Numbered from the stretch's first letter, positions 45,353-53,712 are shown. The stretch: DNA of 64,000 nucleotides from an uncultured Nitrososphaerota archaeon (GCA_964594835.1 CAZQNA010000007.1:52058-116057), one strand, 5' to 3'. Made by a program: numbers and translations. Notes: generated by a model not told the origin, from the sequence alone.

Positions 45353-45418
45353 GTCAACCTATTGGTTGATAAATTTCGAGCTTCAGCCTCTGCATTCTCT
45401 GTAAACCAACAGTTTTAA
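45353..45418 (+). promoter_or_regulatory. Promoter with two operator copies
   Basis: GTCAACC-TATT-GGTTGAT at 45353-45370; GTAAACC-AACA-GTTTTAA at 45401-45418 overlaps a TATA 25 nt before ATG 45444. Confidence 0.65.
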
Positions 45419-45443
45419 TCTGTCCCCGCGTCAATCCCCGGCC

Positions 45444-45803
45444 ATGAGCCTGAAGCGGGTCGTCCTCACGGAGGAGGACAACGCGATAATAGAGATGGGC
45501 AGGGCCCTGTTCCCCTCAAAGGGAGACAAGCTCAGGTTCAAGGTGATGAAGGCCCTCCTCCTAGGCCCCCACACTCAGGCCGAACTCTACGAGATGCTGA
45601 GGGCGGAGAACGGCGTCACCCGGCAGGCGGTCCACAAGGCCTGCGCGACCCTCAGGAGGGCCGGGCTCATAGAGGAGGTGGACGGAGGGGGCAGGCGCAA
45701 GGAGTACAGGATCTCCGTCCTGGGCAAGAAGCTGCTGGGCTTCCTGTACGAGCTTCAGAGGGAGCGAGAGGCGATGGAGGTGACAGGCGGAAGTGAGGAG
45801 TGA
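45444..45803 (+). CDS. Winged-helix transcriptional regulator
   Basis: RFKVMKALL, VTRQAVHKACATLRRAGLIE, RRKEYRIS. Confidence 0.85.
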   Translation: MSLKRVVLTEEDNAIIEMGRALFPSKGDKLRFKVMKALLLGPHTQAELYEMLRAENGVTRQAVHKACATLRRAGLIEEVDGGGRRKEYRISVLGKKLLGFLYELQREREAMEVTGGSEE

Positions 45804-47532
45804 AGTGGTGAGGCTGGCTGTCGTGGACCTCTACCACGCTGGGCTCACCCAGGAGGAGTTCAGGAGGAGGTTCTCGGAACTCCTCAGGGTGTTCTCCGAG
45901 CTGGGCTGCGAGGTCGAGGTGGCCGAGAGCCCCCGGCAGCTGGAGGAGCTGCTCATAGAGGCCTCCCTCCTGCTGATGCTGGGCCCACTGTCGTCTCCTC
46001 CGGAGGACGTCGATCTGCTCAGGTCCTTCGTCGAGGGGGGGAAGGGCCTCGCCTTCGCCGGGTGCGGCAGGGGGGGCGCCCGACCCCGGCTGGAGTGGGC
46101 GGGAGTGACCGTCAACAGGGACCTGGTCAGGGATCCGAGGAGCTGTCACGGGGGGCTCGAGGAGACCCCGGTGACCGAGGAGGTTCTCAGGGAGCACCCG
46201 GCCTGCGAGGGGGCCTACAGGGTCTGCTTCCACGCCCCCTCCTCCCTGGAGGTGAGGGACCCCTCGCTTGCCAAGCCCGTGTGCTACGGCAGCATGACGG
46301 CGGTCTCGGTGAGGGAGTCTGGAGAGGTGGCTCAGGAGGGCTTCCCGGCCCTCGCCGTGGCCTCCGAGGTCGGGAGCGGCAGGGTCTTCGTCATCGGAGA
46401 CTCGGACTTCCTGTCGGACGACTACATAGCGGAGTACGACAACAGGATACTGGCCCGCAGCCTCCTCTCCTGGCTCTTGGGCCTCAGGAGGAGGATGGGC
46501 AAGAGGAAGAGGGTCACGATCTACCCGCCCGTGAGCCTCAGCCCGGAGGACGACGAGGGCTTCTACAGGATGGCCTGGGACCTCTACACGAGGGGGTACG
46601 GCGTGGAGGTCTCCGACGAGATACCCGCCGGTCCCCCGCCAGACGTCCTGATCCTCCTGGACCTCCCCTCCGAGCCGACCGCCGAGCAGGTCGAGTCGCT
46701 GGAGAGGTTCGTGGAGAGGGGGGGCGGGCTCCTTGTCCTGCTCGACCGCTCCAGGGTCGAAAGGCTGGACAGGATAAACGGGCTCCTGGAGAGGTTCGGG
46801 GTCAGGGTGAACAGGACGCCGGTCCGCGGGAGGGGGGAGTTCGAGTGGGACCCTACACACCCCCTCGGCGCCATGCTCACGAGGTTCCACCTCTTCAAGC
46901 CCCTCCCGATGAGGGTCGCCAGGCCGGCAGTCGAGGTGGCCCTGTGGGGCAGGTTCGGGGGGTTCAGCTGCGTCCTGGCCGCGGCCACCAGGGGAGAGGG
47001 CAGGGTCGTGGTCATCGGGGAGGACTGGCCCTTCAGGAGCCACAGCTACTGGCGAGACGGGCACTACGAGATAATCCGGGCATCGATCTCTTGGCTGACG
47101 GAGGGCCTCGCCCCCAGTCAGGAGTACGCTCAGGGCGTCGACCTGCTGAGGAGGGAGATCGCCAGGCTGAGGAACGAGGTTGAGGAGCTGAGGCTAGAGA
47201 GGAGCAGGCTCGTCGCGGAGCTCAGGGCCGTAAACGGAGAGGAGATTAGGATAGAGACCCTGAAGAGGCTGGTCAAGGTCGAGGAGCTGGCGAAGGCGGT
47301 CTCCTCCATGATCTCCGAGATGAGCGTGGCGGAGATGGATGTCGAGCTGGCCAGGGCCGTCGTCGAGGCCTGCGTGGCCGGGCTGAGGAGGGCATACGAC
47401 ACCTTCGACAGGCACCCCAAGGCCGCGCACGAGGTCGCCGAGGCCCTCTCCCTCGTGCTATCCTCCCTGAGGGGGATTGCCGAGCAGAGGGCGGCTGAGG
47501 CCGCCCCGGAGGGGAGGTTGAGAGATGAGTAG
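45793..47532 (+). CDS. Soluble tandem GIFT/DUF4350 (GldG/IFT52-like, GATase-fold) protein with C-terminal coiled coil
   Basis: Two repeats: FVEGGKGL..GSGRVFVIGDSDFLSD..DNRIL..SWL and FVERGGGLLVL..GEGRVVVIGE..ISWL; heptad segment after. Confidence 0.7.
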   Translation: MRSEVVRLAVVDLYHAGLTQEEFRRRFSELLRVFSELGCEVEVAESPRQLEELLIEASLLLMLGPLSSPPEDVDLLRSFVEGGKGLAFAGCGRGGARPRLEWAGVTVNRDLVRDPRSCHGGLEETPVTEEVLREHPACEGAYRVCFHAPSSLEVRDPSLAKPVCYGSMTAVSVRESGEVAQEGFPALAVASEVGSGRVFVIGDSDFLSDDYIAEYDNRILARSLLSWLLGLRRRMGKRKRVTIYPPVSLSPEDDEGFYRMAWDLYTRGYGVEVSDEIPAGPPPDVLILLDLPSEPTAEQVESLERFVERGGGLLVLLDRSRVERLDRINGLLERFGVRVNRTPVRGRGEFEWDPTHPLGAMLTRFHLFKPLPMRVARPAVEVALWGRFGGFSCVLAAATRGEGRVVVIGEDWPFRSHSYWRDGHYEIIRASISWLTEGLAPSQEYAQGVDLLRREIARLRNEVEELRLERSRLVAELRAVNGEEIRIETLKRLVKVEELAKAVSSMISEMSVAEMDVELARAVVEACVAGLRRAYDTFDRHPKAAHEVAEALSLVLSSLRGIAEQRAAEAAPEGRLRDE

Positions 47533-52313: not shown

Positions 52314-52329
52314 GCGAACCCCCCGCCCG

Positions 52330-53610
52330 CTACTCGCCCTCGGCCTCGTACTCCTCGACGGTGGCTGGGGCCTTCTGCCTCAGTACCTCGACCTCCCTCT
52401 CGATCTGCTTCAGCTCCTCCAGTATCTCCTCCGGGATGTCCAGCTCCTCCAGGACCTCCTCCTCAGAGCCCAGCACCTCTCTCTCAAGCTCTTCGATCTC
52501 CCTGTACTCCTCCTCCAGGTACTTCCTGGTCTTCGCTATGAACGCCTCGACGTCCTCTCCCCTCTCGACGAGGGACGGGACGGACTCCGCTATCTTGATC
52601 TTGAGCTCCAGGTCCTTTATCAGCCGCTCTATCTTCTCCACCTTTATGTCCTGGGCTAGGAGCTCGACCTTGTAGTTCCTGACCTCCCTCAGGAAGTCCT
52701 CGTGGCTCGATATCTCCTGCTCCAGGGTCCTCTTGCTCTTCATCAGCTGTATCTCCCTGTCCCTGACAAGCGCGGCCTCCCTCAGCTTGCCGGCCTCCAC
52801 GAGGGACTGCCTCTCCGCCTCAAGAGACCTGAGCTGCCTGACTATTCTCCTTATCTCAGCCTCCAGCTCCTTTATCCTGGACTCCGCCCCCCGGGCTATC
52901 TTCAGCTTCTCCCTGTAGGCCTCCTCCATGATCTCCCGCTTCTTCCTCTCCCTCTCCAGGAACCTCAGAGCCTTCAGCCTCATCACCCTGAGCTCGTTGA
53001 GCTTGTCCTGCCTCGCCAGCTCCTTGAAGACGTAGACGGGCTCGCCATCCTCGACGTACTCCTCGACGACCCCCATGGAGACGAGCTCCCGCAGGGCTTC
53101 CTTGACGGCCGTCGGAGGGAGCCCCAGGATTCTGGCCATCTCAACCTCCCTGACTATCCCCACGGGCTTGACCTTCTCGGCCACGTTCATTATCCTCAGG
53201 GCGATTGTCCCCTTCGGAGCTTCCTCCTCGTACTTCGAGAAGTGCTCCACCAGGACCTCGGCCTCGGTCACGGTGTAGTTGAAGAGCCTGGCCAGGGCCT
53301 CTGGGTCCCTGCTCTCCGGCCTCTTGAGCCACGTGACGACCTCGTCCGGGATGAACTCGGGGAAAACGTAGTAGGTGACGCCCCTCCTCTTGTATATGCG
53401 GCAGTTCCAGTGCTCCGAGAAGTAGGAGAGGACCTGCTCTGCCTCCTGCTTCGAGTGGGCCTCCTCCCCAAAGGTCTTCTCGGACTCCTGCAGGAAGGTC
53501 GGGACAGAGGCCACCCCCCTCCTCCTCTCCAGGTACACCCGGAAGAAGGGCTCCTCCTCATCCACGTCGATCGAGGGGGCCCCGCCACCAGACAGGAACC
53601 TCCAGACCAA
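52330..53610 (-). CDS. Winged-helix + PspA/ESCRT-III-like coiled-coil protein
   Basis: Two wH-like units (..[41 protein letters not shown]), a long helical hairpin ([13 protein letters not shown]) and an acidic terminal helix ([14 protein letters not shown]). Confidence 0.6.
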
Positions 53611-53624
53611 CCTCCTCCCCTCAT

Positions 53625-53712
53625 GTAAACTATATGGTAGACAGAAATATTCAGACTCTCCACCACTATCTACCGGGATTACTCTTAATTCTACGTAAAC
53701 TCTAAGGTTGAT
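53625..53712 (-). promoter_or_regulatory. Two operator copies upstream of the wH-PspA-like gene
   Basis: GTAAACT-ATAT-GGTAGAC at 53625-53642 and GTAAACT-CTAA-GGTTGAT at 53695-53712. Confidence 0.6.

Follow-up and report, generated by a model that had tools for sequence, protein, structure and literature searches.

Locus layout and distribution

The window analysed here is the whole 64,000-nucleotide (nt) stretch of DNA from an uncultured Nitrososphaerota archaeon (GCA_964594835.1 CAZQNA010000007.1:52058-116057), and the subject is a five-gene block at 45,353-53,712 that encodes a small winged helix-turn-helix (wHTH) protein, two GIFT-domain proteins, a paralogue of the AAA+ ATPase Cdc48, and a protein that joins winged-helix (wH) domains to long helices. 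Translation of the window and comparison with related genomes revealed that these five genes form a genuine module, very rare, inherited together and under local regulation, in a small group of uncultured heat-loving archaea. A first-pass annotation had described two convergent operons here, and all five open reading frames (ORFs) are present where it placed them:

45444-45803, plus strand: wHTH protein, 119 amino acids (aa), ArsR/MarR-like (ORF translated)
45793-47532, plus strand: tandem DUF4350/GIFT protein, 579 aa (ORF translated; Pfam)
47525-50131, plus strand: membrane GIFT protein, 868 aa (ORF translated; Pfam and transmembrane (TM) prediction)
50175-52313, minus strand: Cdc48 paralogue, 712 aa (ORF translated; Pfam, NCBIfam and alignment)
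52330-53610, minus strand: wH/long-helix protein, 426 aa (ORF translated; AlphaFold2 (AF2) model)
45204-53899 (8.7 kb): block missing as a whole from three sister species (comparison with genomes G001, G002 and G003)

The coordinates bear out the tight packing claimed for both operons. On the plus strand the wHTH and tandem-GIFT genes overlap by 11 nt and the tandem-GIFT and membrane GIFT genes by 8 nt, on the minus strand 16 nt separate the 426-aa gene from the Cdc48 paralogue gene, and the convergent stop codons of the two operons lie 43 nt apart. Upstream of the block, where the first-pass annotation also had it, is an operon of an ArsR-type regulator, Hsp20 and a canonical Cdc48 (41777-45203; canonical Cdc48 at 42945-45203). 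A TM-like segment is present in the 868-aa protein alone and in none of the other four module proteins. No RNA family from Rfam was found in the window, and a sequence search against solved structures returned no meaningful match.

Among the 40 species genomes sampled for the class (43 for the phylum), the 426-aa family occurs in three, namely the genome of the window (G000), its congener G004, and G028 from a different family, while orthologues of the tandem-GIFT protein occur in four (the same three and G018) that represent three genera. All five genes are present in G028, where the operons are divergent instead of convergent and the 426-aa and ATPase genes overlap by 4 nt, versus the 16-nt gap in the window; its contig C48 stops inside the tandem-GIFT gene, which contig C201 continues together with an 812-aa membrane protein of the same layout. 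G018 (71% complete) carries the wHTH, tandem-GIFT and membrane protein genes on one short contig and the Cdc48 paralogue on a second contig that starts 73 nt before the gene, with the first-AAA-domain (D1) defects and zinc ribbon seen in the others (described below). The 426-aa gene was not found in this 71% of a genome and may lie in an assembly gap.

None of the five genes occurs in G001, G002 or G003, sister species from the same genus. About 150 nt after the canonical Cdc48 gene of G001 comes a THUMP-domain gene (its counterpart in the window is at 53900); in G002 and G003 the same two genes stand about 630 nt apart, with other sequence between them. Block 45204-53899 is accordingly gained or lost whole, and together with the joint occurrence in other genera this agrees with the co-conserved unit that had been proposed. 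The boundaries of the block show no shared repeats of at least 9 nt and no integrase, and its G+C content is 0.661 vs 0.650 for the window; insertion by a site-specific element was considered and rejected, there being no such boundary repeats and no shift in G+C content. The link to heat shock drawn from the adjacent operon is not conserved and was rejected, since the module lies elsewhere than beside hsp20-cdc48 in G028 and G018 and the two are neighbours in genus g1 only.

Two observations concern the edges of the block. An open frame (...EDYE, stop) closes the 240-nt spacer (window 45210-45350) that separates the canonical Cdc48 gene from the first operator, and it could be a gene remnant. 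The filler of about 630 nt (G003 contig C22, and G002) holds a short cysteine-rich ORF that appears to resemble the Fe-S (PF04060) gene at window 55991-56374.

Beyond the class, a profile search with the 426-aa family returned eight proteins at E of at most 0.001 in a collection of 5.8 billion proteins, in which the 8000 candidates sharing most words were scored, and an exhaustive HMMER search of 1.84 billion representatives returned one family cluster and two unrelated wH matches. Scans of genome contigs and of metagenome contigs each added two further loci. Six separate stretches of P0017 (515 aa), a protein otherwise unrelated to the family, match its second wH domain, which suggests a multi-wH repeat protein.

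Shared operator and regulation

The first-pass annotation reported one palindrome twice in each promoter, and four sites, either TCAACY-N4-RGTTGA or a degenerate form of it, were located accordingly:

45354-45369, plus-strand promoter, copy 1: perfect palindrome TCAACC-TATT-GGTTGA
45402-45417, plus-strand promoter, copy 2: TAAACC-AACA-GTTTTA, about 26 nt before the ATG, on an AT-rich TATA-like stretch (read by eye)
53626-53641, minus strand, copy nearer the 426-aa gene start: TCTACC-ATAT-AGTTTA
53696-53711, minus strand, copy distal to the 426-aa gene: TCAACC-TTAG-AGTTTA

A pattern derived from these four sites has 9 matches on both strands vs 1.01 expected, a number reached by none of 100 shuffles, but this enrichment is circular because the pattern was written from the sites themselves. 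With the strict consensus and at most two mismatches, the window holds 9 matches vs 4.16 expected and 3 of 100 shuffles reach 9, so that enrichment is not clear. Stronger evidence comes from independent counts. In its 1.82 Mb the genome of G000 contains a single perfect site, the one at 45354, and 14 sites with at most one mismatch vs 7 for a reversed control pattern; G028 has three perfect sites, all in the intergenic region common to both operons, vs 0.04 expected; and three of the seven matches with at most two mismatches in G004 (0.93 expected) lie in the two promoters. The presence of the same operator in both promoters and its conservation in relatives point to co-regulation of the two operons, as had been suggested.

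The presumed regulator is the 119-aa wHTH protein, which has weak MarR/ArsR-type HTH matches (Pfam, NCBIfam), a wH core with a net charge of +7, and orthologues at the head of the operon in G004, G028 and G018. It is the likelier operator binder because its core is basic, in contrast to the neutral to acidic wH domains of the 426-aa protein, and it is a putative repressor of both operons; the position of the promoter-proximal copies on or beside AT-rich TATA-like stretches suggests repression. No target genes outside the module were evident in the operator search of the 1.82-Mb genome.

The ATPase, the helical protein and the GIFT proteins

The 712-aa ATPase was called a specialised Cdc48, and its features agree. 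Pfam finds CDC48_N (PF02359), CDC48_2 (PF02933) and AAA (PF00004) in two stretches; the NCBIfam model for Cdc48/VAT (TIGR01243) scores 651 bits, under its cut-off of 802.65, and the Vps4/CdvC model (NF041006) scores 257 bits against a cut-off of 650, with two AAA domains in the protein. Pfam finds no MIT domain in the paralogue, no search for an MIT-interacting motif (MIM) being made. The neighbouring canonical Cdc48 served as reference in an alignment of three paralogues, and the G018 copy was read from its translation. In all four D1 keeps Walker A and has DD instead of DE in Walker B, and a CxxC-N11/12-CxxC insert precedes the D1 lid; in the three aligned sequences the aromatic D1 pore loop (KYYG) is lost and the stretch of pore loop 2 deleted. 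The second AAA domain (D2) of the paralogues has all motifs intact. Their C-termini consist of unrelated basic residues (...LGRR, ...ASRK and ...SIRD), vs an I-Y-G end, an HbYX-type tail, in the canonical neighbour. A C-terminal HbYX motif serves in docking to the 20S proteasome.

Phylogenetic trees unite the four paralogues in a single clade (support 1.0) whose N-D1 branch is long, and their D2 domains do not cluster with the canonical copy of their own genome. For these two reasons the paralogue is regarded as an old, diverged duplicate. Searched with its N-D1 part, it has five relatives at 45-100% identity (itself included), followed by canonical Cdc48 at about 35%, and its D2 is 72% identical over 250 aa to that of the neighbouring canonical Cdc48. 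Recent gene conversion of the paralogue D2 with this neighbour was rejected on that 72% identity and the lack of grouping by genome. These sequence features suggest an unfoldase that works on its own and is powered by D2, in which N, D1 and the zinc ribbon would serve recognition, and D1 probably binds ATP without hydrolysing it. To our knowledge, almost no adaptors or dedicated substrates of archaeal Cdc48 have been described.

No CdvC/Vps4 above cut-off was found in G000 (97% complete), and Pfam found Snf7 in none of the 43 phylum genomes, with a model that is insensitive for archaea (its one match in a Sulfolobus control was below cut-off). The CdvC-model search of this genome returned, at E of at most 1e-20, only two canonical Cdc48 genes, the D2 of the paralogue and an 852-aa frame at C2:91200-91811, and this query yielded no PAN-like or Vps4-like single-AAA protein.

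The 426-aa protein was modelled with AF2 from eight sequences (mean predicted local distance difference test score (pLDDT) 80.8), and the model has the layout of winged helices followed by long helices that had been expected:

Residues 16-82, wH1; 89-130, helices; 133-195, wH2
Residues 203-272/276-349: long hairpin, pLDDT 86-97 by 10-residue block
Residues 354-380 and 394-413: helices, followed by an acidic tail

Pfam finds one weak wH match in it (157-186), and wH2 has weak matches to TrmB/IclR-type regulators in six and seven of the eight family members. Both wH domains are neutral to acidic in all eight, which makes them appear unlike DNA binders. The closest Foldseek matches of the tandem wH are protein-binding ones, with UFL1/DDRGK1 at E 1e-4 and ESCRT-II at 5.8e-4 (2zme_B) and 2.1e-3 (3cuq_A/B), followed by RPC62 and ScpB; the ESCRT-II matches reach TM-scores of only 0.25-0.28, and UFL1/DDRGK1, RPC62 and ScpB fit in a similar way.

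Several observations on the helical half are in line with the PspA/ESCRT-III identity given to it in the first-pass annotation. In all eight members helix 1 carries a charge of +4 to +9, helix 354-380 one of -3 to -6, and the tail one of -9 to -14. ESCRT-III proteins likewise have a basic N-terminal helix and an acidic C-terminal part. Foldseek aligns the helical half with Vipp1 (6zvr) at E 0.037 over 208 columns, and hhalign against 25 PspA sequences of the class aligns 103 columns with a score of 21.9 and stays in register across the hairpin tip, whereas 100 heptad-block shuffles average 15.7 +/- 2.3 (one reaches 21.9) and other helical parts of the module score 11.7-19.1 over 5-33 columns. 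PspA/IM30/Vipp1 proteins, which form rings or rods on membranes, have a long alpha1/alpha2+3 hairpin with the shorter alpha4 and alpha5 behind it. VIA-align places Vipp1 at Z 10.8, PspA at Z 10.5 and Snf7 at Z 10.5, among 50 hairpins at Z 9.8-12.2, a range (below about 13) in which the Z of long helices may reflect a common arrangement.

Other results weigh against that identity. Smc arms, chemoreceptors, a dynein stalk and YscO fit the hairpin no worse than ESCRT-III/PspA does, or better (Z 11-12); the same hhalign comparison has a probability of 2% (P 0.02); PspA_IM30 (PF04012) and Snf7 (PF03357) match none of the eight family members at E of at most 10, and PspA_IM30 does not match the 426-aa protein itself at E of at most 0.1 (Pfam). 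The search of 1.84 billion representatives led to no PspA or ESCRT-III family, only to the family itself and the two wH matches. An Atlas feature match of a homologue to a 'Snf7 family' cluster is at 0.76, under the level that shuffled proteins often reach. Some 200 residues of wH precede the hairpin, so that no amphipathic helix stands at the start of the chain, where PspA/IM30/Vipp1 proteins have the amphipathic helix alpha0 directly before the hairpin. A canonical PspA gene also lies elsewhere in the genome, as PspA does in 34 of the 40 class genomes. Judged by sequence, membership in the proposed family thus fails, and an ESCRT-III/PspA reading of the 426-aa protein is possible, given several weak hints from sequence and model that agree with one another.

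The GIFT assignments proved right. In the 579-aa protein Pfam finds DUF4350 at E 9e-19 in two stretches, ABC_transp_aux and IFT52_GIFT; the protein has two DUF4350/GIFT domains, a C-terminal coiled-coil or helical part and no TM-like segment, which places it in the cytoplasm. The 868-aa protein matches the same three families below the curated cut-offs (29.5 bits vs 34.7, 22.4 vs 27.2 and 20.8 vs 30.4), and close homologues carry PF14258/PF23355 in a precomputed list. Its N-terminus is hydrophobic, and a single TM (about 563-591) precedes basic residues. From these it is predicted to be a type-I membrane protein, which should put the GIFT-like head and a helical stalk of about 320 aa outside and a tail of 279 aa inside. 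This architecture is kept in G004, G028 (812 aa) and G018, and the tail has three relatives. Homology among the module's own helical regions was also considered and rejected (hhalign scores 13-16, BLASTP E of at least 0.003). Further matches to the GIFT-like N-terminus of the 868-aa protein are an 844-aa frame (G000:C2:162347-162748) and frames of 440-590 aa across the class, which may be ordinary proteins of the arCOG01314 type.

Possible function and related systems

The account that we tentatively favour, while granting that it may well be wrong, is that the wH-hairpin protein assembles at a GIFT membrane complex and that the dedicated Cdc48 paralogue takes the assembly apart. Both operons would be repressed by the small basic wHTH protein, bound to TCAACY-N4-RGTTGA operators that lie on or beside the core promoters. 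The 868-aa protein would cross the membrane, exposing a GldG/DUF4350-like head, borne by a long helical stalk, to the outside and keeping its 279-aa tail inside, and the cytoplasmic tandem-GIFT protein, whose gene overlaps that of the membrane protein, would dock on this tail. The 426-aa protein, as an ESCRT-II-like tandem wH fused to ESCRT-III/PspA-like helices (a long hairpin beginning with a basic helix, two short acidic helices and the acidic tail), would assemble at the complex, and the paralogue would disassemble it, with N binding the substrate, D2 as the motor, a zinc-ribbon insert and no proteasome-docking tail. Its part would be like the one that Vps4 plays for ESCRT-III, and no Vps4 came to light in this lineage. 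A more specific form, in which the module is a Cdc48-powered ESCRT-like machine with an ESCRT-II-type wH and an ESCRT-III/PspA-type polymer at the GIFT complex, recycled by a dead-D1 Cdc48 in a lineage that yielded neither Vps4 nor Snf7, is doubtful; an ESCRT-like mechanism is plausible but unproven.

Three published predictions bear on this account. In the portion of Makarova et al. (2024, PMC11188069) used here, an ESCRT-III gene lies directly upstream of its AAA+ disassembly ATPase as a rule, and it is proposed that Vps4 arose from Cdc48 via loss of one ATPase domain and that wH domains have long been associated with ESCRT-III. The 426-aa gene stands directly upstream of an AAA+ gene as that rule states, and the ATPase is of the Cdc48 type, not Vps4. 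In the haloarchaeal Halo_adaptin loci of the same portion (PMC11188069), the ATPase bears an N domain of the Cdc48/VAT type, the gene immediately before it is weakly PspA-like, and duplicated-wH coiled-coil proteins are encoded as well. The module resembles them in having a Cdc48/VAT-type N domain instead of MIT, the gene of a helical protein directly upstream, and wH duplication with coiled coils. As these loci are presented there, however, they have a single AAA domain, whereas the module ATPase keeps both with a degenerate D1; their wH and PspA-like proteins are separate and joined by adaptin-like Ig/beta-propeller proteins, whereas the module fuses wH and hairpin; and the partners in the module are GIFT/DUF4350 proteins. 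The excerpt of Ravi et al. (10.1101/2020.09.24.301986) has a bacterial PspA beside a two-AAA protein with an inactive N-terminal copy, for which ATP-driven remodelling is proposed. There too a helical protein adjoins a two-domain AAA+ protein with a dead first domain, but that case, as described in the excerpt, is bacterial with a recognisable PspA, while the 426-aa protein matches no PspA model and has a tandem wH, and its ATPase is a clear Cdc48 derivative.

The third prediction (Makarova et al. 2015, PMC5898192; relevant part) concerns arCOG01314, a membrane-anchored extracellular DUF4350 protein that with a MoxR ATPase and a vWA protein makes a predicted secretion or membrane-remodelling complex. 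The module shares an anchored protein with an extracellular GldG-like flavodoxin-fold domain and an AAA+ ATPase; relative to the system as given in that part, it has Cdc48 instead of MoxR, no vWA in the five genes or their flanks and no Ig-like proteins, and it adds a cytoplasmic tandem-GIFT protein and a long cytoplasmic tail on the membrane protein. The term 'Cdc48' has no occurrence in PMC5898192.

Two known systems complete the comparison. The ESCRT-III/Vps4 (CdvB/CdvC) pair is similar in the order of a helical-protein gene and then an AAA+ gene, in the basic helix 1 and acidic C-terminus, and in the link to wH; the module differs in having no Snf7 match or MIT domain, an N-terminal wH (C-terminal in CdvB) and a two-AAA ATPase of the Cdc48 type. 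Vps4/CdvC consists of MIT and a single AAA domain, and the C-terminal MIM of ESCRT-III is recognised by the MIT domain of the ATPase. Compared with the canonical Cdc48/VAT at 42945-45203, the paralogue has the same N double-psi barrel and two AAA domains; it differs by the absence of the Walker B glutamate and pore loops of D1 and of the HbYX tail, and by the zinc-ribbon insert.

The module shares the logic of all three published predictions and matches none in composition, being set apart by a full-length dead-D1 zinc-ribbon Cdc48 derivative, by a tandem wH joined to the N-terminal side of the helical core, and by GIFT domains both inside and outside the cell. The claim that the combination is undescribed stands to the extent that no published description of the five-gene set or of a zinc-ribbon Cdc48 paralogue was found, although supplements of these papers could list similar loci; it is less unprecedented than claimed, since pairs of a PspA-like protein with a Cdc48-N or dead-AAA ATPase have been published, as far as the consulted parts go (PMC11188069, 10.1101/2020.09.24.301986).

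A rather unlikely alternative is envelope signalling with Psp-like logic, in which the membrane GIFT protein would sense conditions outside, the tandem-GIFT and 426-aa proteins would act as a relay, and the paralogue would unfold a wH factor and in this way reset or release it; the output would be transcription rather than membrane remodelling. In its favour are a local operator and two proteins that bear wH domains, a single-pass protein whose domains on either side of the membrane are sizeable, and the weak matches of wH2 to TrmB/IclR-type regulators (six and seven of eight members), and one perfect operator in the genome makes the regulation local. Against this, both wH domains of the 426-aa protein range from neutral to acidic across all eight members, unlike the +7 core of the small wHTH protein, their best Foldseek matches are protein-binding tandem wH domains (UFL1/DDRGK1, ESCRT-II, RPC62, ScpB), and no targets are evident beyond the module.

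Assembly or secretion of a surface structure of the arCOG01314 (DUF4350)-MoxR-vWA kind, with the Cdc48 paralogue in place of MoxR and the 426-aa protein as adaptor, is unlikely. The 868-aa protein does have the arCOG01314 layout of signal-like N-terminus, extracellular GldG-like domain and anchor, and DUF4350 is linked to an AAA+ ATPase, in the relevant part of PMC5898192; other DUF4350-like membrane proteins of 440-590 aa also occur across the class. But the block has no vWA, MoxR, Ig-like or S-layer gene, one of its GIFT proteins is cytoplasmic, and the membrane one has a 279-aa cytoplasmic tail that is absent from the family as described there. That the block is mobile-element cargo or a defence island acting in conflict with viruses or plasmids is quite improbable, for although the module is spread patchily (4 of 40 class genomes, in three genera), is cleanly present or absent among sister species, and in G018 (contig C77 4646-5453) adjoins two small ORFs that by eye look like a nucleotidyltransferase/HEPN pair, there is no integrase, transposase or boundary repeat of at least 9 nt, G+C content equals that of the surroundings, PADLOC gives generic AAA and HTH matches only and PHROGs nothing specific, and the paralogue tree is compatible with vertical descent and loss.

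A Cdc48 paralogue genetically tied to one partner protein and a membrane complex is a defined, testable pair. If the Cdc48-powered ESCRT-like machine is real, the module would be a living analogue of the proposed origin of Vps4, in which Cdc48 lost one of its ATPase domains. Should the partner be an ESCRT-III-like polymer, the module would show a two-ring Cdc48 able to do the job of Vps4, and would open to experiment both the Cdc48-to-Vps4 transition and the long-standing connection of wH with ESCRT-III. It would also place the widespread, uncharacterised DUF4350/GIFT domain, present here inside and outside the membrane, in a concrete cellular context. Without an ESCRT-type mechanism, the module is a compact, self-regulated accessory system of a very narrow clade and of modest general interest.

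Elsewhere in the window, a stretch of low G+C content at 15627-19711 (0.53-0.54 vs about 0.65) encodes two glycosyltransferases, a UDP-sugar dehydrogenase and a 377-aa bactofilin-domain protein, and looks like a glycosylation island.

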